Positions 35,845 through 55,583 of a stretch of 64,000 nucleotides of DNA are shown here, in pieces. Source of the stretch: an uncultured Methanosarcinaceae archaeon (GTDB lineage: Archaea; Halobacteriota; Methanosarcinia; Methanosarcinales; Methanosarcinaceae); NCBI GenBank assembly GCA_963833425.1, contig CAWHXP010000003.1:128001-192000 (forward strand), in the 5' to 3' direction. Made by a program: the position numbers and the translations under genes. Every line of letters begins with the position of its first letter. Position 1 is the first letter of the stretch. The notes beneath the pieces were generated by a model that saw only the letters and a program-made list of their open reading frames with translations, had not been told where the DNA came from and searched no databases.

Positions 35845-36339
35845 ATGACAGAAAGACCTTCCCTTGACGAATATTTCCTTGAAATCGCCTTCGTGGTAGG
35901 AAAAAGAGCCACATGCCTCCGAAATAATGTAGGAGCAGTTGTTGTTAGAGATAAACGTATACTCTCAACTGGGTATAACGGCGCTCCAAGTGGCATGGAA
36001 CACTGCATTGAAATCGGATGTATCCGGGACCTGGAGAATATCCCTTCAGGCACTCGACACGAGAAATGTAGGGCAGTGCATGCGGAACAGAATGCCATCA
36101 TTCAGGCTGCAATCCACGGGGTGAGCATATCAGGGGCAACTATCTATTGCACACATCGACCTTGTATTCTTTGCACTAAAATGATTATCAATTCAAATAT
36201 CGAAAGGGTTGTATATGCAACTCTTTATCCTGATATCGATTCAGTTGATTTTTTCAAGGACGCATGTGTAAAAGTGGAACATTTACCTTTTGAAATTAAA
36301 TATGAAGATTCGGCAAAAATCAAACCTACAAGGTTATAA
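35845..36339 (+). CDS. dCMP deaminase (cytidine/deoxycytidylate deaminase family)
   Basis: [25 protein letters not shown]; start moved to ATG 35845. Confidence 0.92.
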
Positions 36340-36727
36340 CATACCTTTTGTACTCACCTATACAGAAGTAGTTCTCCGTGGGAGATCCTAAATGATTTAA
36401 TCAATTTTATGATTCATTAGACCAAGCTCAAAACCATTGGGCCTTCAGCTGAGTGGTAGTTTATATATATCTAAACTGACATTCCGCAAATTTACACAAA
36501 TGTAAATTTAGTTGTCCATTTGCACGCCTTTTAGCCATCGAAAGTTAAATTAATTTATAAGCTGCCATCACATTGAGAAAATAGATGGCATTGACGCATA
36601 CATCTGTAAAAAGTGGATTTAATTTTAATTATTCAAAATCATTTGTTTGATAAGATTTATTAACCCAAAATTCACCAAGTACATGCATTCATTATAATTA
36701 GTCAGAAATCTGAATTTTTTCTTTATA

Positions 36728-36815
36728 GAAAATTTAGATAAACCTCCTAAATTTATCATATATTTATAGAAGATACCTAACTACTGTGAAAATAAGAGGT
36801 TAATCGAAATTTATA
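36728..36815. mobile_element. Degenerate ~88-bp MITE just upstream of the aconitase-family gene
   Basis: gaaaatttagataaacc ... gtgaaaataagaggttaatcgaaattt. Confidence 0.65.
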
Positions 36816-36860
36816 ATACCCAATTTGGGATTATTTCGTCATCTTACAGGAGACTTACTT

Positions 36861-38105
36861 TTGGGAACGATTAGCGAAAAAATACTTTCCCGAGCATCGG
36901 GTACAGTGGCAAAGGCAAATGATTTCGTGATAGCAAATATAGACTATTCAATGGCGCATGATGGTACGTCGGTTCTTACCGTAAATGCTTTTAAGGAACT
37001 GGGGAGGGATAAAGTATGGGATCCGTCTAGGGTCATAATTCCTTTTGACCATATTTCACCTGCGAACAATGAGACATCAGCTACCTTGCAAAAAGAGATC
37101 CGGGAGTGGGTGAAGGAACAGGGTATCAATAATTTTTATGATGTTGGGGAGGGAATCTGCCATCAGTTACTCCCTGAAAAAGGCTTTGCCCTCCCTGGGA
37201 AATTGATCATAGGGGCTGACTCTCATTCCTGCACTTATGGAGCTTTCGGGGCTTTTGCTACAGGAGTTGGGGCTACTGATATGGCTGAGATTTTCGCTAC
37301 TGGTAAGCTCTGGTTCAAAGTACCAGAAAGTTTAAAGATTACTGTTGAAGGCAGTCTTAAAGTTGGGGTCTGTGCAAAAGACCTTATTCTTTACATCATC
37401 GGGAAGATCGGAATTGATGGTGCCACCTATAAAGCTGTCGAGTTCTATGGGCAAGCGGTTAACGAACTTTCGGTTGCTGGAAGGATGACACTCTGCAATA
37501 TGGCAATCGAGATGGGGGCAAAGTTAGGAATTGTCGCACCAGACGAAAAAATCTTCGAATTTTTGAAAAATAGAGCAGTTGCTTTTTACGAACCTATCTA
37601 TGCCGATCAAGATGCTTGTTATGTAGAAGAATTCACCTATCATGCTGATAATATTGAACCTCAGATAGCCTGTCCGCATCAGGTAGACAATGTAAAACCT
37701 GTTGGAGAGGTCGAAGGCACTCATATAGATCAGGTCTTTATCGGGACATGCACTAATGGTAGGCTTGAAGATATTGAAATAGTAGCAGCTATCCTGAAAG
37801 GGAAAAAGGTTGCAGTTAGGACTATTGTAATTCCTGCATCCCGCACTATTCTCCTTGAAGCAGTTGAAAATGGGACTATAGAAACTCTGCTGAAAGCAGG
37901 GGTGACTCTTGTAACTCCTGGATGTGGGCCCTGTCTTGGTGCTCATCAAGGAGTACTTGGGGAAAGCGAAGTTTGTATCTCAACAGCAAATCGAAATTTC
38001 AAAGGTCGGATGGGAAGAGATGGTTTTATTTATCTCGCGTCTCCCGCTACTGCAGCTGCTTCTTCGCTAACAGGCGAAATTACTGACCCAAGAAAAATTA
38101 ACTAG
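36861..38105 (+). CDS. 3-isopropylmalate dehydratase / homoaconitase large subunit (LeuC/HacA family)
   Basis: [55 protein letters not shown] before TTG 36861. Confidence 0.93.
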
Positions 38106-38236
38106 GAAATATTTGAATCGAAGGTCTTTTAATCTGAGATGTGTTGCAGAGCTTATTCAACGATTTAAAAATTTGATTTAAATCCAGTGGGGATTTATAG
38201 AATGAATTGCATATACCTGAACAGGAGGGACTAACT

Positions 38237-38455
38237 ATGACTGAAGAATGTAGTCATGAAAATCTTTCACATTTGATTGAACACTGGATTGAACATAACG
38301 AAAGCCATATCAAAAATTTTAAAGAATGGGCTCAGAAAGCCAAAAAAGATGGTTTTCTTGAAGCTTCTGAAGATATCCTTGAAGCTGCCGATAAAATCGA
38401 GGAAGCAAGTGAGTATCTTAAAAAGGCAAAAGAAGGACTTTTCCACATTCATTAA
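38237..38455 (+). CDS. Small His-rich helical protein, putative metal (Ni)-binding
   Basis: 72 aa, HLIEHWIEHNESH motif, C-terminal HIH; GGAGG RBS. Confidence 0.7.
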   Translation: MTEECSHENLSHLIEHWIEHNESHIKNFKEWAQKAKKDGFLEASEDILEAADKIEEASEYLKKAKEGLFHIH

Positions 38456-38790
38456 AATATACGAGAATCTAGTGATAGTAATTAACTATTTCATCTAACG
38501 TGCCGGAATTTTCTGGCACTATATTTTGTTTTTCGTTTTTTTATACAATTCATATTTCAGAATACTCCTCAAGCAGCAATTTCCTTTAATTTTTTAAATT
38601 TGGGTAAAATTTATAATTGTTAGTATATGCTTGATTTTGAGACTTCGTTTATTAATCACTGCTTTTTTCGGGAAAGAGTACAATTTCAATCTTTCATACT
38701 AAATGTGCGTTCCAGATTACAAGATTGACGTCTTAAAAGATTTAACGTCAGTAAATAATATAATATCAATTTTGAATCCATTATTTTATA

Positions 38791-38901
38791 GAGAATTTTG
38801 ATAAATTTCTGATGCTCAAGATTCATTTATTTATCATTCTAAGAACACGAATTTATTATTTATAAGGAGATGAATAAAGTTAGTGTTTATCTAAATTCCC
38901 T
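38791..38901. mobile_element. Longer (~110 bp) degenerate MITE with IS5-type TIRs
   Basis: gagaattttgataaat ... gtttatctaaattccc. Confidence 0.5.
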
Positions 38902-39498
38902 TTTATTCTCTTGCTGGTGTATTTTTGCATTTAACTTATTTTCGTTTTCATACACTAATCTACCGTGCTCTTCGCAAGGATTAAAATGGGTGAAGTCAAG
39001 CATCATTAGATTTATCAGGACTCTATTTTTAAAATGAGAATAAACTTCTTCGAATAACGGGCACAAACAAGTAAAAGTACTTTCATCTTACCCTTTTTAC
39101 TGCTGATTTCATCATTACCTTAGTAGGTAGATTGTTCTGGATTTGTTTTTTGAAAACTTTCGAAAACTGATCAGTGAATTGGCATCAATGGCTATATGAC
39201 TTTTATTAATGGTGTAAAATTCGTTTTTTTGGTAATTCCACTACCGAGTAAAATATTAGTTTAAATTGTCAGAAATAGTGGATAAGTCTTATGGTTTAGA
39301 CGTTACACTTTTTTTAAATTGCTACTATTTCTCAGTATATCGGGTGAAAAACAGTTGCAACTTTTCTAGATATATGATGATGGAATTTTAGCTCGTAAAA
39401 GTCGGGTTATACTATAAAATATGATGTTATTTGATATGAATCAACACCTGATTTTTAGTTTCCTGTTTAGGATTCATTGATAAAGCTTACCTGTCACA

Positions 39499-39586
39499 GA
39501 GAATTTCGATGAACCCGCATATTTCGTCATACACTTATGCTTGTGCATAAACGATTCGTTAAAATCAAAGTTTTATCGAAATCTTC
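39499..39586. mobile_element. 88-bp MITE with IS5-type TIRs
   Basis: gagaatttcgatgaac ... ttttatcgaaatcttc. Confidence 0.78.
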
Positions 39587-40241
39587 TATGGTTAGAAATT
39601 TTCGAGATATTGAGGCGCTTATGCATAAAAAACAGGTAAAGTATATTCGGAATTTATTGCACAATTTGAGCTTAATAATATTTATTCGGCCATCAAGAGT
39701 TTTCTCAAGATATCATCAAAATTTCGCTCCTATGTTCGACTTCGTTACAATTTTGTATATTTTGATGACATTAAAAATAAAAGGAGTATTTGAGGATGGC
39801 GGTAGCTATTTTTAAAATCAACGAATAACGAACCCGAACAGAAAATAAAATCGTGTCAAATACAAAAATTAGCAGAAAAATTTTAAACAGGATTCCAGGA
39901 AAAAATATCGGTAAATTGGAACTTATCCTTTCGTTCAGATTATAATCATCTCGACGATTAACTGCGCTTTTCAAAGTGTTGACTAAGATTATGTTGTCTA
40001 GATATGTGAATATTCCTTTGTCACCATAATTGCAATAAATTCAAAGCCAAGATATAAGAAAAAGTCTCAAATTGGTAGCAAAAAGTTCATAACTTTTATC
40101 CACGTTTGAGGCATGAAAAAAGTACTACTGCCTAATAGTTCATCTCATTATTTTCAATGAGTTTTTAAGTAGTTTATATATGTTGGTTACTCATACAATG
40201 GAAATTGCATAGGATAACATAAACCCACTTAAGGAGTTAAC

Positions 40242-40790
40242 ATGATCCCTAAAAAAGCGTTTGTGACAAAAGGTACCGGGGTGCATAAGGACAGATTAGC
40301 ATCTTTTGAGCTTGCACTGAGGGCTGCTGGAATAGAAAAATACAACCTTGTAAGTGTTTCAAGCATTCTACCTCCAAATTGTAAAATCGTACCTAAGGAA
40401 GAAGGACTTTTACAGCTAAAACCTGGTGGCATTGTCCATTGTGTGCTTGCAAGGAATGATACTAACGAACCACATCGTTTGATGGCTTCAGCTATAGGAA
40501 CTGCTCTTCCAGTAAATGAAGAAAATTACGGTTATATTTCTGAACATCATTCTTTTGGAGAAGAAGAAATTATTGCTGGAGAATATGCGGAAGACCTGGC
40601 AGCAACAATGCTTGCAACTACTTTAGGGATAGAGTTTAATGCTGAAATGGCCTGGCATGAGAGAGAGCAGGTGTATAAAGCTAGTGGTCACATATTTGAC
40701 TCTTTCCACATTTGTCAGACTGCAAAAGGCGATAAAGATGGTAAATGGACAACAGTAGTAGCTGCAATGGTCTTTGTTACTACAAACTAA
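40242..40790 (+). CDS. pdaD: Pyruvoyl-dependent arginine decarboxylase
   Basis: SFELALRAAGIEKYNLVSVSSILPP with SS self-cleavage site; AAGGAG RBS. Confidence 0.93.
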   Translation: MIPKKAFVTKGTGVHKDRLASFELALRAAGIEKYNLVSVSSILPPNCKIVPKEEGLLQLKPGGIVHCVLARNDTNEPHRLMASAIGTALPVNEENYGYISEHHSFGEEEIIAGEYAEDLAATMLATTLGIEFNAEMAWHEREQVYKASGHIFDSFHICQTAKGDKDGKWTTVVAAMVFVTTN

Positions 40791-41139
40791 AGAATGAGAC
40801 TAGTGGCATTATGCTTAATTTTCGATAAGATAAAAAATTTAAATAATTTGTTGAGTAGGTAATTTCAATATCGAAAGCCAAATTAGACACATAATGCAAA
40901 AATTTAATTTATAATTTACAGAAAATTCGAGACACTACCGAAAGAGGGAATTAAAGAAAAATATAGGGCTAGAATGGTAGCAGGCTTTGCACATTATTTC
41001 CCTCAACTTTTTCAATATCACAATCATAATTTCGATGTCTCATCAAACTGCAGTGGTTGGGTATGTTCACACCACTAATCCGAATATCTATAAATTGTTC
41101 AAAGTCAAATTATTTCATTTGCATGCATGCTTTTTTTGC

Positions 41140-41570
41140 GTCATTTTCTAGAGGTTTATCCGTTTTTGCATGGACAGTACGTTATGGATAAAAACATTCC
41201 AAAATTGTTCCCTTTTTTATTTTCAAACCAAAACAATTAAGTTAGCTTTGTAAATGCCCAAATATTCATTTCTTTTTTGCAGTTATCAATATTTTTTCCC
41301 CTGAATTACTAGTCTGTGGTACCGTGTGGTACGTACTCAGGAAAACAAATAAATTTACTGAAGAAATTCGATCAATATACCGTCATCAAGTTCAAAGTCG
41401 GAAAAATCCCTAACACTGCTGTAAAATAAGTATTTCAAGTATAATGATTAATCAGCTTCATGTCTGCCTCTGGAAACTTTTTTGTTAAAATATGAACTCA
41501 AAAATGATACAAAAAATTCCGATTAATTAAGGAATCAATTTCAGCAAGTTTATCTACAACTAACTAAATA
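41140..41570 (-). mobile_element. IS5-family 5' fragment, degraded
   Basis: Similar to 49860-50270 (aagaaattcgatc, caagttcaaagtc, atcaatttcagcaagtttatc). Confidence 0.7.
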
Positions 41571-41600
41571 TAAACCTGCATAAGTACCGCTGGAAACCCT

Positions 41601-42220
41601 AAAACCAGCCATAGAGAAATAAGGAATCTTTTCAAAACTTGTGTTCTTGGTGTTCAGTATGGACTTGGTGCAGAGGCTCTTGCATTAAAAATTAATAAAT
41701 CAACCCCATGTGCAAGGGAACTTTTGAGCCATCATAAGCGTTTATAAAAAAATTTGGATATGGGGTAATAGCGAATGGACTCAAGCGTGCCTTAGGAGAA
41801 CGATCGATACCTGTTTCAAATGGCGAATGGCTGTAAAAGGCCCCTGTAGAGAGGAATTGTTAACTGTAAGAAACTCTCCTGTTCAAGCAACAGGAGAAGA
41901 GATCTAAGAGTTGCCTGTTTTCGTCTCACTGAAAATAATATCAAATTAATTGCGCTGATCCATGATGCAATGATAATTGAATGTGAAGAAGAAACAGCAG
42001 ATGAAGGGATTTAAAAAGCTCGGAAAATAATGTCAGATGCTGCTGAAGTGGTGCTTGGATTAGGAAATCGGTTAAGAACTGAAGCTGAAATCACACTACC
42101 TGGACAGATACATAGTTAAAAAAGCAACTGAAACTTGGCGTTTGATCATGAAGATTTTAGAAGAGATTAAAGAAGAAAGAATATAGGGAAGACTAATTTC
42201 AATAATTTCCGTTTGGTCTA
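41601..42220 (+). pseudogene. Family-A DNA polymerase C-terminal remnant
   Basis: Motif B HREIRNLFKTCVLGVQYGLGAEALA, VRNSPVQATG, motif C LIALIHDAMIIE; several stops and frameshifts. Confidence 0.82.
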
Positions 42221-43201
42221 ATCTTTGAATTTAGCTGCAGAGCAATATTAATTAGCTGCGCAGCTAAATTCTAAAGCCTTCTAATACCTGTTTTACTACT
42301 TATATATCTCTAATATATCTCTTTTTTTCTTCTTGATATTTAAAAATAATATTAAACGGGGTAAAATGATTGTTGAATTCTAAAGATAAAATAAAAGGAT
42401 ATTTCATACCCCAGATGCCTTCAGAATGGATTGTAAAGTTACAGTCCACTTCAGTGGGGCATACATACAGAGTGGCTATGTATATTTGACACTTAAAAGG
42501 GTGAAGAAATCTAAAATTTAGTAGTCACCTTAAAAGGTATAAATTCATTTTTACCTATTCCAGATTGGGCTTGTCCGAAAGCATTGGACGAATTAGAAAA
42601 ATGTGAGATGAGAAAAACGATACGAAAGCGCGGTAAAATTCCCACTGTATCTGTTTTATGCGACAATTGTTATGAAGATTATCCCACTTTAAAAATCCAT
42701 GATAAGTTAGGATCACGCATTTGAAATAAGAATCAAATACTTTAGACATTGTAATGTAATCAAAAAAGAACAAGCACAATAAATGCTGCAGTTTAAATTT
42801 GAAAGTTAGATATATAAGGGTTCTTGCTATTAATTTTTTAGTCCAATTGCATAAATTCTATACCTATTATGTCATTTTTGTAAAATTTGACGTTTTTTTA
42901 TTTTTTAAGTTCCCATGTAAGCGTTACGTTGATATTAGCTTCTAGGCTTGCCTTAGTTATTAACGCATTTCCCTCGCTAGTGAGCTTTAGACCAAATGTT
43001 GACTCTACCTTAGATGGTCTGGTACTCTCAGGAACTTAATTCATTGTGGCTACTATGTATGTCGCCATTTGATGTATTGTATTCATTGCACTATTTAGAG
43101 CTTCAGCCGATTTATCTTCAATCTCTTTCAGTGAAATTATCGCATTAAATGTTATATTTAATTATTTGATGTGACTCTTAGTAAGCTAAAGTGGAAAAGA
43201 G

Positions 43202-43602
43202 GATGAAGTAAATAAGTCTTGAAGCATGCATTTTTCAAGTTATGGATTCTCAGGACATTGTCGGAGGTACGGGTTTTGTCCTCAGTCCAAATTTAGTTGT
43301 AACTTACGCCCATGTTGTGAAAGACTGCAACACCGGAATAGGTGAATTATTAACTTATTCTTCTATCCTAAAAAAACCAGGTTGGAAGCAGAGATATTAC
43401 GTGATGGTTGGAACGAGGAGGAGATGTTGCTTTCCTACGATTGAATAATTTTTCTCTTCTTAATAACCATGTGGCTAAAAAGCTAGGAACATTAGGATCT
43501 ACAAATGAACTCCAACAGGGTTTTCACCTCTATGGCTATCCAGATATAAGAACAGATTTAAAGGGTACTTTGGGTAGGTCAGATCATAGGACAAGTTCAT
43601 AA
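43202..43602 (+). pseudogene. Trypsin-like serine protease domain remnant
   Basis: GGTGFVLSPNLVVTYAHVV, DVAFLRL, FHLYGYP. Confidence 0.75.
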
Positions 43603-43689
43603 AAAACTACTTAATGGGCAGCTATTAGGTCTTTTAGAGTTCTTTTCCGAAACTGAAATTAAGTTACTTCTGGGGTAATACGAGTACAT

Positions 43690-44045
43690 AGGGAGGGAAT
43701 AAGAATTTTACCTTTAACTGGCAATTTGACACCAGTTGTTGGGCCGTTATTACGCACTTTAGAAAGTAATTCTGATCCGGGAACTGCAGTTTCGGTTACA
43801 TTTGATGGGAATTATGCTGTTTCAGATTCCGGTGACGACAAACTAAAGTTTGGGATCTTAAAACAGGAAATGAATACACACATTAAAAGGTCATTCTGAT
43901 CGAGTTTCATCAGTTTCCCTCACCTCCGATGGAAATTTGGCTGTCTCAGCTTCATGGGATAAAACGCTTAAAGTCTGGGATCTTAAAACAAGGGCAGAAG
44001 TCAGAACCTTAGCAGGTCATTTCAATTGTAGAAATGGTTTGAATT
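43690..44045 (+). pseudogene. WD40-repeat remnant of an NLR/APAF-like protein
   Basis: PLTGNLTPVVGPLLRTLE, TLKGHSDRVSSVSLTSDGNLAVSASWDKTLKVWDLKT, RTLAGH. Confidence 0.85.
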
Positions 44046-44070
44046 TTAAATTTTGTAGAGGATGTTAGTA

Positions 44071-44958
44071 ATGCCAAATCAACTGGAAGATGAGGATTGG
44101 GACCTCCTTCTTCGGAGAATCAAGGATAAAAAGTGTACTCCCTTTCTTTGGACCCGGAGCTTGTGCTGGAAAGATCCCTGTTGGTTCCCAGATTGCAAGT
44201 GAATGGGCAAAAAAGTATGACTACCCAATGGAAGACTCTGATGACTTGATAAAGGTGGCTCAGTTTGTGGCTGTGACCAAAGACGCTATGATTCCAAAGG
44301 AGGAGATGTGTAGAAAAATCAATGAACTGTTAAAAAAGTCCCACAAAAATACTTTGAAACTTCTGATGAACTTCATGGAGTGCTAGCCGATCTCCCATTG
44401 CCAGTTTATGTCACCACAAATTACGATGACCTTATGGTGCGAGCTCTTAAAAGCCGTGGCAAAACACCAATCCAGGAAATATGTCGGTGGAATGAATACT
44501 TCAAGCGACGCAAACCAACGTCAGACTATGTTCCTACTCCAGAAAAACCTTTAATATATCACCTCCATGGCTGCTATGAAATGCCAGAGTCGCTGGTTCT
44601 AACAGAGGACTACTATCTGGACTTCCTTGTTGCCACCTCAATGAAACAAAACCTGCTTCCTCCGCGTATTCAGAAGGCATTTACAGATTCATCTCTTCTT
44701 TTTCTAGGCTACAGGATAGCTGATTTGGGTTCCCAAGTTCTTTTCCGGATTCTTGCTGAATACTTAGAAATAGGTGATAGAATGCACTATTCCATGCAGC
44801 TTGTGACAGAGAATGTTCATGAGGCAAAAGAAGAAAGAGCTCAGAAATATCTGGATCGCTATTTTGAGGAGTCTAATATCAAGGTACACTGACACGATTG
44901 CCGTGAATTTGCCGTAGAATTGAGAAAACTATGGGAGGCTTTCAATCGTGGTCCTTGA
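44071..44958 (+). pseudogene. SIR2-like domain protein, frameshifted
   Basis: EDWDLLLRRIKDKKCTPF / GPGAC, VYVTTNYDDLM, YHLHG, LVLTEDYY, LLFLGY; premature TGA at 44890-44892. Confidence 0.85.
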
Positions 44959-46158
44959 ATTCCAGGCTTACGTGGGCCCTCTACCTTTTGAAGAGAAACA
45001 TAAAGCCATTTTTTTCGGGAGACCGTGAAGCTCGAGATCTCCGGTCCTTAGTCATTGCGCATCGTTTGGTTCTCGTCTATGCCCAGCCGGGTGCAGGTAA
45101 GACTTCACTTATCACTGCAGGGCTTATTTATCTCCTGAAAGAAAAACAGTTTGAAGTTCTCCTTGTGGCGAGAGTTAAAGGCACACTTTTTGGAAATATA
45201 AAATCTGAAGAGATCTCAAACATATTTGTCTTTAATACTCTTACAAGCTTGGCTAAAGATGAGCATGATGTTGAGCGCCTTGCTAAAATTAAACTTGTTG
45301 AGTTTATGAAAGAACAGAAGCATATGCATGATGACAATGGTATGGCATTACTCCATGTCATCATCTTCGATCAGTTTGAGGAAATATTCACTTCGTATCA
45401 AGACCGCTGGAAAGATAGAGAGGAATTCTTTGAGCAAGTAAACATTGCTCTGGAAGCAGATCCCCTTTTAAGGGTAGTTTTTGTCATAAGGGAGGATTTC
45501 ATATCTCAGCTAGATCCTTATGAAGATCATCTACCCGAAAAAATGTGGTTGAGTTATCACATAGAGCGCCTGCGCCGTAATGCTGCCCTGCAAGCAATCG
45601 AAAGGCCATTGAGAGATACTAGTCGCTCTTTTGCGGAAGGCGTGGCAAAAAAAACTTGTCGATGATTTGCTGGAGAGTCGAGTTGAGACAATGAACGGCG
45701 AGATCGCTGAGATAACAGGAGAATTCATAGAAGCTGTGCAACTTCAGGTAGTATGCAAGAACATCTGGCGGGATTTACCATTAAATGAAAAACTAATCAC
45801 GTTTCAGCATCTGAAAAAATATGGTAATTTTTAAGAGGTACTTTACAGGTTTTACGAAGAGGCTATAAAGGCAGCGGTAGAGGAGACAGGCATTGATGAG
45901 TAGAGCCTGCGCAGATTTTGCAATGAAAAGTTAATAACGAAAATAAGGATGCGGGGGACGGAGTACCGGGCTCCAGAGTTCACTTGTGGTATTTCCAATC
46001 CAGCTATTGACGTTCTTGAAAGCAGGCACCTTATTAGAGCAGAGTCGCGGGCAAATGCGCTCTGGTATGAACTGGCACACGACATTATACACCGGACCAT
46101 CATGTTTGAGAGGATTTCAATTTTTTATAAGACCTGGAAATACCATTCCATAGCATAA
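44948..46158 (+). pseudogene. STAND NTPase (nSTAND1-like), frameshifted and 3'-truncated
   Basis: YVGPLPFEEKHKAIFFGR, Walker A AQPGAGKTSL, Walker B IIFDQFEEIF, VIREDF, QLQVVC, YELAHD; overlaps the SIR2 stop. Confidence 0.85.
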
Positions 46159-46246
46159 TCTAAGAGTTATTTGCTTTGATATCACTCTTTCTCTGCTTCC
46201 TTTCTCTACCTTACCAACTGGGATTCCAAAGATGTTTGATGCAGTC

Positions 46247-46540
46247 AACATTATGAAGGAAAAATTATCTCATTAAATGTAAGATGGTACCTAAAATATT
46301 CATTGAGCTATAAAAATTTAGAGGAGATGATGGCAGAAAGAGGAATAAAAGTTGATCACACTACTATAATTAGATGGGTACATCGATATTCTTCTGAGAT
46401 GGAAAAGAAGGTGCTTAGACATTTAAAGCCAACTAATGACTCTTGGAGAGTGGACGAAACCTGCATCAAAGTAAAAGGTGAATGAAAATATCTTTATCGT
46501 GCAGTTGATTCAGCTGGGAATACAGTTGAATTTATGCTAA
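46247..46540 (+). mobile_element. IS6-family transposase fragment
   Basis: HYEGKII, WYLKYSLSYKNLEEMMAERGIKVDHTTIIRWV, SWRVDETCIKVKGE*KYLYRAVDS. Confidence 0.88.
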
Positions 46541-46664
46541 GGAATTGTAACGAAATAACTTAAGTAATCAATTATTCTGTTTGAAGAAAATCGGTTAAGA
46601 CATCCATAAAAACGGTTAGGTACATTGCAAAAATTGACTTAAGGTATTTCGCGGCAAGCACTAA

Positions 46665-46788
46665 GATCCTATCCGAAAAGTCTGTAATGCATGTTGAGAA
46701 GTCACAATAGGTTTATAATATCCGGCCCCGGTTTTGCATATTGCATATCGTAAAAGTTATAGCAGGTAACTACTTTTTGGATAGGCTC
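46665..46788. mobile_element. 124-bp MITE with 3-bp TAA target duplication
   Basis: TIRs gatcctatccgaaaagt / actttttggataggctc; TAA at 46662-46664 and 46789-46791. Confidence 0.75.
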
Positions 46789-47224
46789 TAAAATGTAATT
46801 TTAAACCATAATGTTTAATGTACTTAAATTTAAAGCTTTTTTTATTTCAAGAATACACGGTTGATTCCATTTTGTGACCTTTTTTAGGGTTCATTTTTGC
46901 AAAAATCGTTTGTTTAGTTGAGTATTAGATGCAACATATAGGAAAAGGTAGTATTTGACCGATAACCGATGACGGTTATCGGCCATAGAGCCTGTATTCC
47001 CGTGGTCAATGGAATGAACAACTCAACAAACGACTTTCATGAAACTAAATGTATAAAAATCACATCAAATAGTCACACCGCTTATATTGTAGCATGGAAA
47101 TCACGATAGTCACCATAACCCTCTGCATGATGGCAATATTCGTAGTCTTGGTCATACTAGGCAATGTGGTAGGCTTTGACAAAATTTTAAGGCTCATTCG
47201 CCTTCGCTAAACAATTGGATTGCA

Positions 47225-47400
47225 GCGCGACCGCTTAAACATCTCCGACAGCAGGATAGCCTACATCATGGCAGACTCAGAAATGAATAAGAGGTCGCTC
47301 TTTATGTAACCGGTTACATGCGAAAGGGAAAGACAATCAGAAAAACGCTACTCTGAATGGGGACACATCGAAAGCTCACGTTGAACAACGTCAAAAGTAT
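47225..47400 (+). ncRNA. Probable group II intron 5' (domain I) fragment
   Basis: GCGCG start (GUGCG-like), palindrome atgtaaccggttacat, gaaagac, ctgaatgggg, resembling recalled Methanosarcina intron 5' ends; no domain V/VI or RT seen. Confidence 0.45.
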
Positions 47401-48479
47401 ACGCTTTAACGTCTGAACGATTCACTTCTTCGAGGCAGGAAGACGAATAATCTTTGACATTCCAAAGATCCAGTAATTTTGAATACCTCTTGAAGAGGCA
47501 AAGTATCCGGCGCTTTTCCAAAGTATATTTGAAAGATATGAGAGAAATCCCACAGAGAGTTTGTAGTGGCTAGGATACTTTCACCCATTGGATCGAATAA
47601 AAACCTTATTTAGAGACTATCAGTGACCTATTCCGTGTTTATTTAAGTAGCCATTACCCCATTTTAATGGTGGACAGACGTTGTATGAAAAGGACTAGAT
47701 ACTAAGTGAGTTGATGCCTTTTTTAGATTGAAATATTGGAACTTTAATCGATTACGACTTATCTTAGAATAAACTAAGCTAGTAAAAATGAAAGATGCTT
47801 TGAACAAAAATTTGGATGCCTGAGGAGAGTATTCTCTATAAGCTATATAGCTCGGTAGGTGAAGCTTACGAACATCCGGAACCACACAGGCTTGAGGTTG
47901 AAAATAAAAGCGGTTTAAGCCAGGAGGGCTCGGAAAATCCTTTTTTATCTGCAGAGAAGCAGGCTGCAGCAGTCGAGAAATAATATCCTTCTAAACCAGA
48001 AACAGAGGAAGAGAGCGGTTAATTCAGGCTTATATCATTTTATTCGGTTTATTGATTTCTTATGATTGTGATCCGGCACTACGTGGTCTTCTACTGTACT
48101 TATTTTTATCATTTATGAAATAATTTCTTTAGCGTTTTATGTGTGCTTATTACGTTTTTAGAAACATATAAATAGAATATTTTTTAACGTATTAGCTTTT
48201 GTGACATCTTTTACTTTTTGTTTAGCTGGTTTTAAGTCTGGATATAAGTTCTCAGAATCCCTATCTAATTTTTTAGGTTGGTTTATCCCATCTTCTTTCT
48301 TTTCTATTAGTTTTGTTAATACTTTTTTATTTATTATGATTCAATTTATCAATTGGGACATTAGAGGTATTGATATTTATTTTTTCATTTTTACTGCAAT
48401 TGTTTTTTTTGTCATTGGCTGTTTGGTTTATATATTTGAGTTTGGCGATAGATAAAAGAGATTGATTTTTATGGAATAT

Positions 48480-48985
48480 TATAGCTTATCACTTTACTTG
48501 TCCCTAAAGGACTACAATTGTCTCTAATAGAGTCTATCTGTAGACAAGTTTGAGCCTTCTCTGGCTCATATCCTTTTCGCGCTTTTATCCAGTTTTCCTT
48601 ACCCCATTTTTTACCGTACATCATTTCCATTGAGAAGGAAAGCATCAACTCTTCAAAAGTGTCTACATCTTTATATCCCCCTCAATGTACCAGATCATGT
48701 TGTGTACCTCCCGCAACCAGCTTGAATAAGAATCCAATAACCTGATGAAAGCTTCGTATTCTGACATACCCATAATCCGTATAAAGAAATCGATACATAA
48801 TTCTTGAAGCTGATCTTGCCTAGGTAACCATACACAATCGCTTACATCTTTTGAGTGATGCCAATACCACACTCCAGCATCATCGTCTATTGTATCGTAA
48901 ATGTAATCTCCGTTTTCGTAGCTCCACTTAAGCTGGATTTCCTTCGCAAGCGAACACATTTTAATATATTTATCTGGTAGTCCAT
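48480..48985 (-). pseudogene. Hypothetical protein with WLPRQDQLQE motif, frameshifted at both ends
   Basis: GAGG RBS and ATG 48985 are out of frame with the 98-aa core; the tail continues in another frame after ~48665. Confidence 0.55.
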
Positions 48986-49253
48986 TTTACCATCCTCGAA
49001 ATGAATTGTCTATTAATGGGTTAAAAGGATACCCTGAGCTATGTGAAAGTATTCAAATACTATCTTTAATTTAGTTTATTATATTTATTAAAATTTTTTT
49101 CTGTTATGTTCCAGAAATATTGACGTATTTTATAATGACAGTTTTTGTGGTGAAAACAAAGAGTACAGAGCCATTCAGAATACACATAGCTTTCGGTACA
49201 CAGCCGATTTTAGTTTTAGTGCTAACTTATAGACTATTTTTAAAAATACTGTA

Positions 49254-50385
49254 GAGGATTTCGATAAACTTCGGATTTTATTTCTTAGCAGTAATTTCTC
49301 AGATCTTCCCCTCAATTTCTCTATTTAATCCCTCTTTTTGGCTCTACTATTCTCAATTCTTTGATTTTAAAGATAGCTTCCGCTATCTTCAATATACTTT
49401 TTTTATTTCCAATGTCCTCAATTGATGGAGATTATAACAAAAAGCCGTACACAACATTTTTAGATTTACTCTTTTAACAGTAGTAACAAAAACTCTTCCT
49501 GCTTTGAAAATTTCTTTCGTTACTGAATAAACTCTTTCCCCTGGGACTCTTTTTGAGCTAATTCTCTTATTTCTTAATATATCCTTTATTCCCAACGTAT
49601 GTCCTTTGACCGCTCTTTTCATTGTTATATTATACCCTTTCGTTTTTGCTCCAAAGTATCCTCTGTCCTTATAAACCACTTCATTTTCCTCTGTCAAATC
49701 TACATACGAATCATGTACTGACGCAGTTGTTGTTTGAATCTTCTGATCAGCTCATAATCTCTGTCTATTATATTATGAAGCTTATATCCAAAGTGAGACT
49801 TACCTCCCTTCTTTGTCCAGGTTCCGTCTCTGTTTCTTCTTGTTTTTGCCTCATCTCTCTGCTTTTGCATGTCATGGATCTGAATGGATAAAAGTAACAT
49901 CCTGAATCAGTCCATGCTTTATCTGGAAACCCAGAGTATCAAGTTGGCTTTGCAACTTTTCCCATATTTTCTTTGAAATGCTCGATAATTCTCTCCCTAA
50001 ATAGCCATACAGTAGTACTGTAAGGTATGTATTCCGGAAATCCAAGGAATTTCCTAAAAGAAATTCGATCTATACACTGTTTGTCAAGTTCAAAATCAGA
50101 GAGCACATGCCATTGTTGTAAAACAAGCATTTTGAACATCACAATGACATCAGTTTCGGATCTCCCTCCTGAAACGGTTTTGTTAATATACATAGACTCA
50201 AGAATAATACGAAACGCTTTCCAATCAATTCATGAATAAATTTCAGCAAGCTTACCTCCAACAGATTCAAGACGTTTATACTCTTCTTTAAGAGCAAAAT
50301 CAGTAAGAGTTTTCATGAATATACATAAATATTGACAAATTTAAAGTCAACCATGCTCATGAGCATGGAGTTTATCGAAATTCTC
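49254..50385 (-). mobile_element. IS5-family element, defective transposase, copy 2
   Basis: Same TIRs as copy 1; TSD TGTA (49250-49253, 50386-50389); retains VYKDRGYFG. Confidence 0.93.
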
Positions 50386-50519
50386 TGTAGAATACAATTT
50401 AAACATTTGTATGCTTGGAGTTCTCGTCTTTCAAAAACAAGATATAATATCAACCAAATACTACATAGGACCAAAAAATTCAATATTTAGATATCAGATC
50501 CTGAAAATTACAAATCGTT

Positions 50520-50630
50520 CCTACAATTGCTGTGACATCTTGCAGGGTCACAGAAAGGATTACATAATTATTATTTTACTAGATAAACATTAATTAATTT
50601 TAAGTAGTGACAAATAATATAGTTGTTTTG
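50520..50630 (+). repeat. Dispersed repeat, copy 2 (see 29470-29580)
   Basis: ttgctgtgacatcttgcaggg...tattattttac...tatagttgt. Confidence 0.75.
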
Positions 50631-51359
50631 GGTCTTTACTGTAGTTATTAAATTACTAAGTATGCTTATATTCGCCTTTAAGAACAAGATCAACAAAGGT
50701 CTCCATAAGTAATAATTATTGTCAATAGGTTTAAAGATCTCCCATATTCAAATAATAGGAGTCCATAAGGATTCTCTATGAAATTTAAGCGAAAAAGATC
50801 TCTAGCGCTTCTATCACTATTAATGAATATATAAACTTAAAGATATACTTCAAAAAACAAAAAAAAAAAATCATAACATCATTTCGTGGAGAATAAACAT
50901 AATTCCTCTTATAATTTCAAAATGTGGAATATTGTAGAGCGATTACACAAATTTGAATTAAGGTTTATGGATGATTTTTGTGAACTATTGAGGTAAAATT
51001 TTAATTGAATAAGAATGATCTTTTTTGGCTCAGCAAATCTGAACCACTGTTTTAACATTAAATTAAATTGTTAAATTAGGACTGAATCAAATTTTTCCTA
51101 GGTAAAAGATAAAATTGTTTAGCTTTCAAAAGAGTAGGTGAATAGTCACATTTTCGCTATTATCAAAAGCAGTGAAAATTTAAATATAAATAAAAAATAA
51201 TTATAGTAATATATCTGTTTTGTGAAATAAAGTAGAATGGATTTCCAAAATGAAAGTTTTCACAATCAAACAATTGTAAAACAAATAAAGGACAGTTTGT
51301 ACCGCTTAATATAATAAGCAACTTAATATACATGATTTACACAAATATTTTCGATCACC

Positions 51360-52850
51360 GTGTCAGAGCAAAGAAGTATACCTCTAAAAGAGCATCTATT
51401 AACCCTGAAGTCCTGCAAGCATGGAGGGCTAATTCAGGAAACTTCTGAGACTTACGGGATTCCTGAAAGCGAAATTCTTGACTTCAGTACAAACTTAAAT
51501 CCCCTAGGAAATCCCTTTGAGAATAAGGAAAGCGGATTAAACTTGGATAGCCTTCTCAAAAAGAGTATCGGAAAACTTATGGAGTATCCAGATAATAGGT
51601 ATCTCGAGTTTAGGGAAGCTGCTGCAAGGTTTATAGGGCTCGGAGTAACTCCACTGAATATTATTCCGGGTAACGGTTCCACGGAAATCATCAGGCTTTT
51701 AGTCGAATGCCTGGTTGAAAAAGGGGATAGCGTTCTTCTCCCATGGCCCACTTTTGGGGAATATGAAACGCAATGCCAAATTATGGGAGCAAGACTCGAA
51801 TATCCCAAACAGGAAGATATAGAAACACTTCCGAATGAGGTTCTTGAGAGAGCAAAAATCCTTTTTATTTGTAACCCGAATAACCCAACCGGAAAGCTCC
51901 GTACCAAAGAAGAAATTAAAGCTCTTGCAGAGCGTTGCAGAAATTATGGAACGCTTCTTTTCGTAGACGAGGCTTTTATCGAACTCTCTGCCCCATCTCA
52001 GAGTGTTGCAGATCTAGCAGCAATAAATAACTACGTTTTTGTTCTTCGCTCCCTTACGAAGGATTTTGCAATTCCAGGAATAAGGATGGGCTTCGGAATA
52101 GCTTCCTCTGAAATGGCTGAAATCCTAAATGCCTCAAGGCTCTCCTGGAACCTTGGTACCGTGGCAAATGCTATAGGAACTGCTCTTCTTAACATCGAAG
52201 GCGGTATAAATAATCCATATCTAGAAAAAGCAAGAGCTTTAATCAGAGAAGAAGGAGGAAAACTCAAAGCTAAACTCGACAAAATTAGGGGATTCGAAGC
52301 AGGGGAAGCAAATGTAAATTTTATTTTTGTTGATATCAGCAAATTCATTCTTGATTCCAGCAAATTGAGTGCATGCCTTGCAGCTCGTGGAGTTCTTATC
52401 CGGGACTGTGTCTCTTTCCGGGGCCTTGGAAAAGGATACATAAGAATCGCAGTCCGGACAGCAGAAGAAAATGACAAGCTCATTGCTGCAATAGGGGATG
52501 TTGTTTCCCAGTGGGGCAAAGAACAGGCAAAGAATGAACTACAGAATGTAATTGAAAAAGCCTCTGAAATAGAAATTGAAGGTAGAAAGACCTGTGAATA
52601 CTATCCCTGTCATTTTGAAGGCCAAAACTGTACTTTCTGCTTCTGTCCTTTTTATCCGTGTGAGAACGAATGCACAAGGGGGAAGTGGATAACAAGTTCA
52701 GGGGGCAGCAAAGTATGGAGTTGTATAGACTGCCATATTGTTCACAATAAGGAAATAGCCCGAAAAATTCTTGACAGCCTCATGCAGAAAGGAGATGCCG
52801 ATGAACTTGTGAAAATAGCCTGGAAAAAAGTGGTGGAGCCGAGGTTATGA
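51360..52850 (+). CDS. cobD: L-threonine-O-3-phosphate decarboxylase with C-terminal Cys-rich domain
   Basis: HGG, LDFSTNLNPLG, CNPNNPTG, VDEAFIEL, RSLTKDFAIPGIRMG; tail CEYYPCHFEGQNCTFCFCPFYPC...CIDC. Confidence 0.92.
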   Translation: MSEQRSIPLKEHLLTLKSCKHGGLIQETSETYGIPESEILDFSTNLNPLGNPFENKESGLNLDSLLKKSIGKLMEYPDNRYLEFREAAARFIGLGVTPLNIIPGNGSTEIIRLLVECLVEKGDSVLLPWPTFGEYETQCQIMGARLEYPKQEDIETLPNEVLERAKILFICNPNNPTGKLRTKEEIKALAERCRNYGTLLFVDEAFIELSAPSQSVADLAAINNYVFVLRSLTKDFAIPGIRMGFGIASSEMAEILNASRLSWNLGTVANAIGTALLNIEGGINNPYLEKARALIREEGGKLKAKLDKIRGFEAGEANVNFIFVDISKFILDSSKLSACLAARGVLIRDCVSFRGLGKGYIRIAVRTAEENDKLIAAIGDVVSQWGKEQAKNELQNVIEKASEIEIEGRKTCEYYPCHFEGQNCTFCFCPFYPCENECTRGKWITSSGGSKVWSCIDCHIVHNKEIARKILDSLMQKGDADELVKIAWKKVVEPRL

Positions 52851-53833
52851 TTATACCAGATAGCGGCCACTTGGCTCTGGTACTTTTGCTGGCAACAACT
52901 ATAGACATCGTTTTTGGAGAACCTCCGGCTGCTGTGCACCCGGTTGTATGGATGGGAAAATTAATTAATTTTCTTAAAAATATAGCTCCAAAAATCCACA
53001 GAAAATTTTATGGAATTATAATGGCTCTCTGTTGTGTTTTTTTCGCAGCTTCACTTGGTTATTTGGTTCTATACATTGCAGCTCTCCCTGGAATTCCAAG
53101 TATTATTGCACTCTTTATAGAAGCTTATTTCTTGAAGGCTACATTTGCCATCAAAAGTCTCCTTAGTCCGGCAAGGGAGATTTACAAGCACCTTGAAGAA
53201 AACAGGCTTGAAAAAGTCCGGGAACTACTCCCTATATACGTAAGCCGGAACACTTCCAAACTGACCAAGACCCAGATGTCTTCTGCAGTTATCGAATCCG
53301 TATCCGAGAATTACGTAGACTGCATCTTGAGCCCCATTTTATATTATGTTCTTTTCGGAGAATTCGGACTTGTCGCTGCATATGCATTCAAAGCTATAAG
53401 TACCCTAGATTCCATGGTTGGATATACTACCAAACAGTATAAGGAACTTGGGTACTTCTCGGCAAAATCAGATGATGCATTGAATTGGATTCCGGCTCGA
53501 ATATCTGTTATATTTATTCTTGCAGCAGCTCTTATAGTAGCTATAATCCCGAAAAAGCAAGGAAAGATAAACCCCTTTAATAGTATCAGGAGTGTCCTGG
53601 AAGATGGCATGAAAACCCCGTCTCCTAATTCCGGTTACCCTATGGCTGCGACTGCAGGAGCTCTCGGAGTCAAACTCGAAAAACCTGATCATTACATTTT
53701 GGGAGCATTATACCCTCCCACTGAAATAAAGGATATAAAAAGAGTATCCCAATTAATAGCAATTGCTTCAGGATTCTCACTTGCTGCCTTTATGGCAGTA
53801 ATTCAGATAGCAGAGATTCATTCATGCCTATAA
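52847..53833 (+). CDS. cbiB: Adenosylcobinamide-phosphate synthase
   Basis: GEPPAAVHPVVWMG, ESVSEN, TLDSMVGY, NWIPAR, SPNSGYPMAA. Confidence 0.93.
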   Translation: MIIPDSGHLALVLLLATTIDIVFGEPPAAVHPVVWMGKLINFLKNIAPKIHRKFYGIIMALCCVFFAASLGYLVLYIAALPGIPSIIALFIEAYFLKATFAIKSLLSPAREIYKHLEENRLEKVRELLPIYVSRNTSKLTKTQMSSAVIESVSENYVDCILSPILYYVLFGEFGLVAAYAFKAISTLDSMVGYTTKQYKELGYFSAKSDDALNWIPARISVIFILAAALIVAIIPKKQGKINPFNSIRSVLEDGMKTPSPNSGYPMAATAGALGVKLEKPDHYILGALYPPTEIKDIKRVSQLIAIASGFSLAAFMAVIQIAEIHSCL

Positions 53834-53994
53834 TTCCTTCTTTATTTTGTCAGAGCCGAGTGTTGTCACGATATGGATTTTGTGCCGAAATAAAATTTTG
53901 AGAAAAGCGGAGCAAGCCGAAGAACGCTAATCTACCAGAAGCATTAAAATCCATCCATAAACAATAAATTCACTACTATAGATGTATACAAAAG

Positions 53995-54120
53995 TGCCAT
54001 CCATTTTCTCAATATGACAATTAGCTTCAAAATTAATCTGACTTTCAATGAATATATGGTAGGCAAATAGGCAAACAAATTCTACATCTGTGTATAATAT
54101 GCAGAATGTAGGATAAATCA
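53995..54120 (+). repeat. Dispersed repeat, copy 2 (see 11435-11555), inside the cob cluster
   Basis: ctcaatatgacaa...aaaattaatctgactttcaatga. Confidence 0.75.
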
Positions 54121-54200
54121 GAATGAAGTTAAACTCGATTTATAGAATCAATAACTTACTAAAGTTTACCTAGGCAGGATAAAAATCACAATGTGATCTT

Positions 54201-54764
54201 ATGAAGTTATCAGATATTGATGAAAGGAACCTGAAAAAAGAGAAGTCTGAAAAAGTAGAGGGTAGAGCTATAATTGATATACTCGATGTCCTTTCTGAAG
54301 AGGGTATCAGTATCCAGGATCTTGTAGATACTGCTCTCGAAATGTATATCCCACATCCTGGGCTTGAAACAAGGGAAAAAGCTGAATATTTATTTAAAAG
54401 AGAACTCAAATATGCTCTTTCGGACCCAAATCTATGTATTTTGATTTATTCAGGGATTCTGCTTGAGAGGGAAGGCAGGATAGGAAATCTTCCGAATATT
54501 AGTAAAAATTCCTATGAAAAAGACATGAGTTTCATAATTGCAGACGAAGTTCTTGGAACAAGTATTGCAACCTACATCAGTGGCTCCAAAGGAGCATTCG
54601 AGTTTGTAAGGTACGACAAACAAAAGCCAGGAATTCTTTCAAACCTGGGACCATTTATTGATGATGTGATAGGGGGTCTTATAGGGGGGGTATCCTCCAG
54701 TATGTATTCAAGAGGTCTGGCAGAATTCGGAAAGAAAAATTGGGAATCAGGCGAAGCCCTATGA
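54201..54764 (+). CDS. cobZ: Alpha-ribazole-phosphate phosphatase, archaeal type
   Basis: [38 protein letters not shown]; cob cluster context. Confidence 0.85.
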
Positions 54765-55561: not shown

Positions 55562-55583
55562 ATAGATACATGAGAGATTTGGA

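Follow-up and report, generated by a model that had tools for sequence, protein, structure and literature searches.

The window analysed here is a 64,000-nt stretch on contig C3 of the 4.07-Mb, 21-contig genome assembly of an uncultured Methanosarcinaceae archaeon (G000), and coordinates given without a contig label are positions in it. The housekeeping genes of the window are archaeal, among them those for an RFC-type clamp loader, SecD/F and a pyruvoyl-dependent arginine decarboxylase as well as cobalamin genes. Between pdaD and an aminotransferase gene of the cobalamin cluster lies a 10.5-kb zone poor in open reading frames (ORFs; 40800-51360), and in this zone we find the relic of a family A DNA polymerase (PolA) gene (41601-42186, + strand), followed by a spacer containing a repeat array (42187-42369, +) and a pseudogene for a winged-helix protein (42370-42724, +). 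The relic very probably represents the C-terminal third, no longer functional, of a CHEAP-type proofreading polymerase, derived from a small integrative element and accompanied by what remains of the element's array and winged-helix gene. It is inert, and nothing of the module works any longer in the window.

In blastx and tblastn comparisons with an intact paralogue on contig C5 (C5:68388-70157), the relic resolves into five collinear pieces (41601-41744, 41740-41904, ~41910-42011, 42015-42092 and ~42100-42183) that jointly span residues 396-589 of the 589-amino-acid (aa) protein, and it must therefore contain at least three frameshifts and at least one internal stop. The fourth piece starts after an in-frame TAA at 42012, and the last ends at the natural stop codon, TAG (42184-42186). 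The intact C5 copy matches window 41601-42177 in tblastn with E values of 7.6e-34 and 2.6e-17, and a second intact copy, on contig C18, matches the relic at 8.0e-38. In three-frame translation, motif B (R..FK.CVLGVQYG; REIRNLFKTCVLGVQYG) lies roughly at 41610-41670 and, in a different frame, motif C (LIHDA) roughly at 41955-41970, which bears out an earlier, sequence-only reading of the stretch that had reported these two PolA motifs in a broken frame. Motif A (DYSQxE), invariant in the intact relatives (D343, Q346 and E348 of a 17-row polymerase alignment, A2), falls in the lost part of the relic, and the exonuclease part is gone as well.

The relic's own scores against the Pfam model DNA_pol_A (PF00476; cut-off 34.3 bits) are weak, with only one of seven stop-to-stop pieces matching (E 0.019, 14.3 bits) and 15.1 and 10.7 bits obtained on translation through the stops, and its identification therefore rests on homology to the intact paralogues. 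These match the model at 95.5 bits (C5:68388-70157) and 97.8 bits (C18:4529-6283), so that the failure to hit DNA_pol_A that the sequence-only reading had named as grounds for giving it up is not seen. Scanned as a whole, the genome contains 18 PF00476 matches, eight of them above the cut-off. The highest-scoring of these (177 bits) lies at C7:286300-287034 (locus L001) and is the C-terminal fragment of a canonical-looking PolA with one internal TGA and no recognised neighbours. An unrelated second PolA element occupies C8:402849-406881 (L021:2850-6882) beside an integrase fragment; it encodes a 791-aa primase-polymerase that resembles NrS-1 and carries a DUF3987 helicase domain, then a 3'-5' exonuclease that is broken and a PolA (147 bits) of more canonical form, and a CHEAP relic with a terminase-like gene lies 4 kb beyond it.

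The CHEAP-type polymerase is present at about nine places in G000, of which two are intact (C5, 589 aa; C18, 584 aa) and about seven are broken. The copies on C21 and C1 are frameshifted, that at C8:366137-367643 is heavily decayed over most of its length, and four are 3' fragments (the window, C15, C7:23085-23720 and C8:410643-410997). Five more loci retain only the end of the polymerase gene or the spacer, together with the small downstream gene. In the intact cassettes the order is tyrosine integrase, divergent regulator, a protein of 189-190 aa that we call X, PolA and the small winged-helix protein, with the stop codon of X overlapping the start of the polymerase gene. The integrases of the intact elements match PF00589 at 1e-21 and 4.3e-11, and an integrase accompanies the paralogues on C5, C18 and C21.

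Elements of the C18 type add a 140-aa helix-turn-helix (HTH) protein resembling a small terminase subunit (phrog_4102, E 4.9e-25). Because host DNA resumes about 40-140 bp past this terminase-like gene in related Methanosarcinaceae genomes, the basic element should be about 7 kb long. Several relatives carry cargo between the winged-helix and terminase-like genes, such as sulfatases in loci L040 and L078, and L034 also has cargo after its winged-helix gene. Genes of the phrog_4102 type occur at about 25 loci in G000 (e.g. C10:94992-95405, C5:159740-160153 and C9:52793-53203) and, being far commoner than the polymerase, must belong to several element families in this genome. In three Methanosarcinaceae genomes (L032:13073-21244, L041:13546-21703 and L042:7242-14794) an element, with integrases that differ among the three, lies directly upstream of an iron-only/vanadium-type nitrogenase operon (NifH, P-II, AnfD/G/K, AnfO); the ORFs downstream of the element in L032 were considered as virus head genes, and this was rejected when Pfam identified them as the host anf/vnf operon. 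An attP site inside polA was likewise rejected, polA being unbroken in the intact integrated copies. None of 20 archaeal loci has a tRNA gene adjoining the element, one locus having a tRNA-Ser gene 4 kb from the integrase, and there is no tRNA gene near the relic, where the site of insertion is inside an insertion sequence (IS) copy.

The same gene organization extends well beyond this genome. Of 8000 candidates scored in a word-based search, 5758 proteins matched at E<=1e-5, including homologues in Methanosarcina, Methanolobus, Methanosalsum, Methanocalculus and Methanoregula and bacterial ones at about 50% identity; the nearest named polymerase homologues are from Methanosarcina and other Methanosarcinaceae. 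We compared 100 public loci, 80 of them from species-representative genomes and 20 from IMG/VR. The former were kept from 570 loci confirmed in a pattern scan and comprise 13 archaeal loci (Methanosarcinaceae or Methanoregula) and 67 bacterial ones, mostly from Pseudomonadota; the latter were recovered with an alignment as query, a scan of the viral contigs with a single protein having given no matches. A PolA ORF of at least 450 aa is found in 91 of the 100 loci, a match to the X profile just upstream of it in 85 and a small winged-helix protein downstream in 87. The stop codon of X touches or overlaps the polymerase start in 72 of the 80 loci that have both genes, the overlap usually amounting to 1 or 4 bases. 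In 57 loci there is a tyrosine integrase, either about 0.6 kb downstream or 3.3-5.9 kb upstream, many of the contigs being too short to reveal one. These four (PolA, X, the small protein and the integrase) are the only gene clusters common to more than half of the loci, and scans against family libraries detected no helicase family in the archaeal elements.

Within the genus, the polymerase occurs in only 2 of 24 other genomes, and in none of 16 from other families of the order. This sporadic distribution, together with the linkage to integrases, indicates that the homologues are not stable chromosomal genes lacking a mobile context, the second outcome that would have spoken against the sequence-only reading. 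That reading had described the locus as the replication module of an integrated virus or plasmid-like element and was largely right, intact copies in the same genome showing it to be a small integrative element with its own integrase. Neither cultured phages (best match 28.7% identity) nor plasmids (matches at 22-26%) contain a close homologue. In a FastTree phylogeny of 85 full-length sequences, rooted only at the midpoint, all 10 archaeal rows cluster together (local support 96) amid bacterial rows.

Protein X (alignment A3) has 4249 representatives at E<=0.001 in an exhaustive library, yields no match in Pfam, NCBIfam, PHROGs or PADLOC and finds nothing at E<=1 among PDB sequences. Its predicted structure is of high confidence (predicted local distance difference test score (pLDDT) 93.0; predicted template modelling score 0.83). 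Foldseek returned nothing from the PDB at E<=0.001 for this model, and its scores against the ESM Atlas were below 0.9 and uninformative. Structural alignment ranked T4 gp32 first (Z 4.8 over 138 residues; root-mean-square deviation 4.5 A), with RB69 gp32 at Z 4.0 and the oligonucleotide-binding (OB) folds of BRCA2, HIN and RPA after these. We treat X as a candidate single-strand-binding protein on the strength of this model, a lead and not a finding.

The gene downstream of the relic is disrupted by a TGA that replaces a Trp codon (42487-42489) and by a frameshift near 42505. In blastx it matches an intact 122-aa paralogue (C5:67767-68135) at 84% and 81% identity (E 2.9e-42). The small protein has no match in Pfam, NCBIfam or PADLOC and only weak ones in PHROG, to replication initiators and DnaD-like loaders (E 0.0016-0.0098). 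A model of the intact paralogue (pLDDT 81.8) is predicted to be a winged helix: the best Foldseek match is the DNA-binding domain of CodY (E 2.3e-3, probability 1.00), and further matches are to MarR (the MarR-type AbfR), ArsR, the N-terminal domain of pSK41 RepA and ORC.

The spacer between polA and the winged-helix gene (27.9% G+C) contains three TTAGCTG half-sites, at 42231 (+), 42252 (+) and 42261 (-), and is followed by a T/A-rich, promoter-like stretch. The inverted repeat GAATTTAGCTGC (42227-42238), whose exact reverse complement is GCAGCTAAATTC (42260-42271), and the perfect 16-bp palindrome TTAGCTGCGCAGCTAA (42252-42267) are located where the sequence-only reading had placed them. The palindrome by itself is not beyond chance; the window contains seven perfect 16-bp palindromes, against 2.2 +/- 1.6 in 100 first-order Markov simulations. 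Four of the others have at least four G/C bases and lie at 14633, 29974, 47304 and 50352. Folded as single-stranded DNA, the spacer region has a predicted energy of -16.3 kcal/mol (z -4.5), and an Rfam search of 38000-48000 returned nothing at E<=1.

Comparison with related spacers, by alignment of 12 genomic copies and by repeat tables for 23 copies that include 13 public archaeal loci, places these features in a larger arrangement. A repeat array is found at this position in every lineage compared. In the window's subfamily (A) it consists of 5-6 TTAGCTG half-sites, arranged as two direct repeats ATTTAGCTGTAGAG, then ATTAATTAGCTGCACAGC, an inverted copy and a terminal palindrome. The terminal palindrome, TTAGCTGTACAGCTAA, is perfect in L040, L041, L042, L052 and the C15 copy of G000; that of the window differs from it only at the central two bases and remains perfect. 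The window array keeps three of its subfamily's 5-6 half-sites. The 44 bp between two 12-bp direct repeats, ATTAATTAGCTG, are missing from the window and from one other relic (C7:186 kb), and this deletion is what brought the remaining sites into the nested arrangement seen here. As judged from these alignments, the nested palindrome is the remainder of a TTAGCTG half-site array, and the palindrome proper is its conserved last site. The suggestion of an origin hairpin needs amendment: the closest intact homologues do share the downstream palindrome, as the sequence-only reading had asked to have checked, but it is one site of a repeat array and not a lone hairpin.

Other lineages have arrays of different sequence. 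The C18 type (subfamily B) has 2-3 repeats of TGACTATTTACATCGGAATCTG with a 22-bp period, three of them in C18 itself; L038 (Methanosalsum) has five repeats of TACCTATACAACTTTGTCCT with a period of 22-23 bp, L036 (Methanolobus) three repeats of ACGGACAAATTGTC with a period of 21 bp, and L034, L035 and L037 have 3-4 repeats of AACTGGTGACA. At least three phased direct repeats are therefore found beside the winged-helix gene in L038, L036 and C18. The array sits 100-130 bp upstream of the winged-helix start, ahead of the T/A-rich stretch. The sequence of the repeats varies together with the lineage of the adjacent winged-helix protein, and this covariation suggests, indirectly, that the protein binds the repeats; we read the array as its candidate binding site, whether origin or operator.

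Iteron-type plasmid origins have a Rep gene beside 17-22-bp direct repeats. The arrays described here resemble them in having 21-23-bp head-to-tail repeats in 2-5 copies, together with inverted copies, directly upstream of the winged-helix gene and followed by an A+T-rich stretch, and in that the repeat sequence tracks the protein lineage. They differ in that the protein consists of a single winged-helix domain of about 100 aa, and in that the sites of the window's subfamily are half-sites of 7 bp that point in both directions instead of regular tandem iterons. An array of this kind, palindrome included, might instead act only as an operator or promoter through which the winged-helix protein represses its own gene, or as a terminator for polA, and not as a replication origin. 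We regard this as a real possibility, if a somewhat improbable one. The placement of the array 100-130 bp before the winged-helix start and next to a promoter-like stretch is what an operator would call for, the best Foldseek matches of the protein (CodY, AbfR and ArsR) are transcriptional repressors, and its single domain of about 100 aa contrasts with the two winged-helix domains of classical iteron initiators. On the other side, head-to-tail units of 21-23 bp repeated three to five times, as in L038, L036 and C18, are typical of plasmid iteron origins, the array is located inside a replication module, and pSK41 RepA and ORC are also among the fold matches, as replication initiators and DnaD-like loaders are among the weak PHROG matches. 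As for a terminator, no terminator-like site is found in 41900-42900. The operator and origin roles are also mutually compatible.

The history of the locus can be read from G019, the genome of a sister species. Window 36197-41568 aligns with G019:C1 36000-41777 at 84-87% identity, window 50666-50857 with G019 41783-41973, and window 51148-55995 with G019 42563-47403 at 92% identity. Window positions 41568 and 50666 are adjacent in G019:C1, and the junction falls within an IS5-like transposase copy that is uninterrupted there. In the window the left part of this copy (41133-41568, - strand; the N-terminal DUF772 region, decayed) is interrupted at 41568/41572, and its right part, with the start of the transposase gene, lies at 50666-50725 (-) and aligns with G019:C1 from 41783 onward and with the IS consensus. 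Because the IS copy of G019 is uninterrupted and the flanks are adjacent, the 9092 bp from 41572 to 50663 are an insertion into the IS copy. The insertion is flanked by an imperfect 9-bp direct repeat, ACTAAATAT on the left (41563-41571) and ACTAAGTAT on the right (50655-50663), and the empty site in G019 reads CAACTAACTGAAGAGGTTTGTATTC. The sequence-only reading, in which an IS5 fragment cut the polymerase on its 5' side, correctly recognised the sequence at 41133-41568 as IS5-type but had the order of events reversed, since it was the 9.1-kb block that interrupted the IS. The IS5-like family gives 135 blastn matches at E<=1e-10 in G000, scattered over all large contigs, and there are dozens of copies in G019 too. 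The best of 41 copies that match over at least 400 bp retains a transposase ORF of 182 aa, and in 34 of them the ORF is shorter than 50 aa; the copy with the 182-aa ORF matches DUF772 (PF05598) at 2e-18 and is homologous to the decayed fragment in the window. The pattern suggests that the IS multiplied in a burst long ago and that its copies then decayed wholesale.

The block contains the polymerase relic, the array, the winged-helix pseudogene, a broken defence-type cassette (43242-46200, +) and, in its right half, repeat and IS debris (46249-50624) that includes a second IS5-like copy (49252-50389). Two segments of this debris, 47592-47813 and 50414-50624, are the halves of a repeated element of ~500 bp that has about 15 other copies; a nested insertion of 2.6 kb, to which the IS5-like copy belongs, separates them. 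A contiguous copy of the ~500-bp element lies at C8:431281-431734, beside a paralogous SIR2/STAND cassette. We considered this repeat as the right end of the integrative element and dropped the idea, as only 2 of the 15 other copies adjoin a terminase-like gene. Searches of 46249-50624 by tblastn for remnants of the integrase, X and the PolA N-terminus gave only E values >0.2.

Pfam searches of the ORF pieces identify the defence-type cassette by fragments of SIR2_2 (4.3e-24), nSTAND1 (3.9e-23), a trypsin-like domain (Trypsin_2, 5.8e-4) and a WD40-type domain (1.7e-5). That the element may have carried these genes, as the sequence-only reading proposed, is plausible but unproven. The cassette lies within the same insertion, at the position where relatives carry cargo, and the intact C5 element likewise abuts a cassette of Trypco2, trypsin-TIR and TIR-NB-ARC-TPR genes; on the other hand, neither of the two paralogues of the cassette (C8:432456-434177 and C20:60063-61545) has element genes within 15 kb, and the block contains nested repeats. 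The C5 cassette itself (C5:57370-68480; L009) is intact, its TIR-NB-ARC-TPR protein having 1354 aa, and on either side of it, in direct orientation, stands a segment made up of the polymerase 3' end, TTAGCTG array and winged-helix gene, one such copy belonging to the intact element and the other being a solo relic.

It is also conceivable that an already truncated fragment entered the IS5-like copy by IS-mediated or composite transposition, with the SIR2/STAND cassette and the debris arriving separately. The truncation of the polymerase lies no more than about 15-30 bp from the insertion boundary, the direct repeat around the block resembles a short target-site duplication, at least three kinds of repeated or IS debris are present, and the two cassette paralogues stand without element genes nearby (0/2), all of which would fit such a history. 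We nevertheless think it unlikely, as no transposase or terminal inverted repeats that could move the block as a unit are recognised, and the order PolA, array, winged-helix gene, cargo agrees with that of intact relatives (L040, L078 and L034). Moreover, three further relics in G000 begin within PolA codons 323-360, a sign that the left part may be lost repeatedly in the same manner. By local DNA alignment the relics start, of 589 codons, at codon 405 in the window (41601; codon 396 at the protein level), 323 in C15 (C15:93048), 360 in C7 (C7:23720) and 330 in C8 (C8:410643), so that four of the nine relics of G000 start within codons ~323-405. The break in the window is flush with the insertion boundary and that in C15 abuts a host gene; high-copy repeats abut the break in only three of the nine relics. 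The clustering, a pattern noticed post hoc, may have arisen by recombination where the gene is most conserved or by abortive excision.

We file the polymerase as a CHEAP because residues of the published reference agree, by eye, with the family consensus. According to the available portion of Czernecki 2023 (PMC10201439), CHEAPs form PolA cluster #15, found mainly in Proteobacteria and, surprisingly, also in Methanomicrobia; they keep all exonuclease and polymerase motifs, have a leucine at B3 and have the CcPols of the SCCmec element as their nearest relatives. The paper reports very high activity of the reference enzyme, from Ideonella dechloratans (I. dechloratans), both as polymerase and as exonuclease. 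Over its first 400 residues this protein agrees block by block, as judged by eye, with the A2 consensus. The relic shares the B3 leucine (CVLGVQYG) with each of the 17 rows of A2, in which exonuclease residues D14 and E16 are nearly invariant and Y150 and D154 invariant, and motif C reads HDA, with an invariant alanine in place of the glutamate in the HDE of Pol I, in the relic and in 17 of 17 members. The family also resembles CHEAPs in its size of about 580 aa, in having a 3'-5' exonuclease domain plus a polymerase domain and no 5'-3' exonuclease, and in its occurrence mainly in Proteobacteria and Methanomicrobia-type archaea. It differs from that description, as far as the available text goes, in being flanked by X, the winged-helix gene and the integrase, and in being multicopy and often dead.

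The same portion of the paper describes CHEAPs as cellular auxiliary enzymes, no replacement for Pol I and without known partners, and gives no account of their gene context. That the polymerase of the window is a cellular enzyme with an auxiliary or repair role, as the published name suggests, or part of a defence system, decayed in place, is very improbable: apart from this description it could draw on a PADLOC match to the model RTasPolA (DRT; 5.9e-30) and on the defence genes adjacent in the window and on C5, but a PADLOC score of this size is to be expected from any PolA (Pfam 98 bits), no reverse transcriptase adjoins the polymerase, only 2 of 24 congeneric genomes carry it, and the reading is largely refuted by about nine copies in G000, an integrase in 57 of 100 loci and the empty site in G019.

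Among the closest known systems are the PolA-SSB (single-strand-binding protein) modules. CcPol and its small partner MP form a primase that works with an iteron-binding helicase (Bebel 2020, PMC7581432), and PolA-SSB pairs extend to other islands of Bacillota (Rice 2023, PMC10061031), according to the available parts of these papers. Like the CcPol-MP-Cch2 module of SCCmec, the elements described here combine a family A polymerase on an integrative element with a small partner gene, a site-specific recombinase and an iteron-type site nearby, and X, tightly coupled to PolA, has its weak structural matches among single-strand DNA-binding proteins. The differences are several. The exonuclease domain is complete here and truncated in CcPol; the candidate partner X lies upstream and has about 190 aa, whereas the CcPol partner is a ~100-aa OB barrel encoded downstream; and the small protein downstream of our polymerase is a predicted winged helix and not an OB fold. 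The conserved core contains no helicase in contrast to Cch2, the recombinase is a tyrosine rather than a large serine enzyme, and the hosts are Proteobacteria, Planctomycetota and methanogens rather than Bacillota. Pipolins and casposons, as described in the available portions of their sources, are also small integrative elements carrying their own DNA polymerase and recombinase, but theirs is a PolB where ours is a full-length proofreading PolA, and casposons use Cas1 in place of a tyrosine integrase. A 2026 survey of bacterial polymerases places a 'PolA3' group in prophage regions, CHEAPs being unnamed in the available part of it. The literature search found no paper on the gene context of CHEAPs or on PolA-bearing integrative elements of methanogens, and the element context and iteron arrays appear undescribed in the literature searched, the polymerase subfamily itself being published.

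The best account of these observations is that the polymerase gene belonged to a small integrative element whose conserved core has the order X (~190 aa), PolA, repeat array and winged-helix protein, accompanied by a tyrosine integrase and, in archaeal elements, by a regulator and the small-terminase-like HTH protein. Either this element or some stretch of DNA with what was left of it would have inserted into the IS5-like copy between pdaD and the cobalamin cluster after the split from the sister species. The part from the integrase to the PolA N-terminus would have been lost afterwards and the remainder would have decayed, with the array reduced from 5-6 half-sites to three by a 44-bp deletion between 12-bp direct repeats. 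In live elements the array would be bound by the winged-helix protein and may serve as a replication origin, an autoregulatory operator or both, while PolA, perhaps with X as its single-strand-binding partner, would copy the excised element.

Several points weigh against this account. On its own the relic stays below the Pfam cut-off of 34.3, and neither a helicase nor a primase is recognised in the conserved core. The match of X to gp32 is weak, none of the 48,161 chains compared reaching Z 5. No att sites were found for the intact archaeal elements, for which a search for direct repeats gave nothing convincing (longest 11-13 bp). The 9.1-kb block contains no integrase, X, PolA N-terminus or terminase-like gene and could thus be a composite of separate insertions, and the 9-bp repeat that flanks it is both imperfect and short. 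Finally, the array could be an operator or terminator only, the origin role being putative.

A broader conjecture, which we put forward tentatively and which is rather improbable as a whole, is that CHEAPs serve as replicases for integrative mini-replicons of 4.5-9 kb, which would form a very large, unnamed family shared by Bacteria and methanogenic Archaea. X would then be a gp32-like single-strand-binding partner with whose help the proofreading PolA could initiate DNA synthesis and need neither a separate primase nor a helicase, as CcPol does with MP. The origin would consist of lineage-specific iterons recognised by the winged-helix protein, and the relics that start from codons ~323-405, flush with the left junction (4/9), would be scars of integrase-mediated abortive excision.

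The relic itself is ordinary debris, and its value is as a pointer to a large and little-described family of elements. For annotation, it accounts for 9.1 kb of debris and reverses the supposed sequence of events, in that the IS was interrupted by the element block. For the family, a CHEAP subfamily that had been characterised biochemically and lacked a context is shown to ride small integrative elements with a fixed four-gene core and lineage-specific iteron arrays. These elements have colonised methanogen genomes repeatedly, leaving about nine copies in G000, most of them dead. If X and PolA do act together as a primase-polymerase, they would constitute a second, independent PolA-based priming system, and the element would offer a minimal replicon usable in Methanosarcina genetics.

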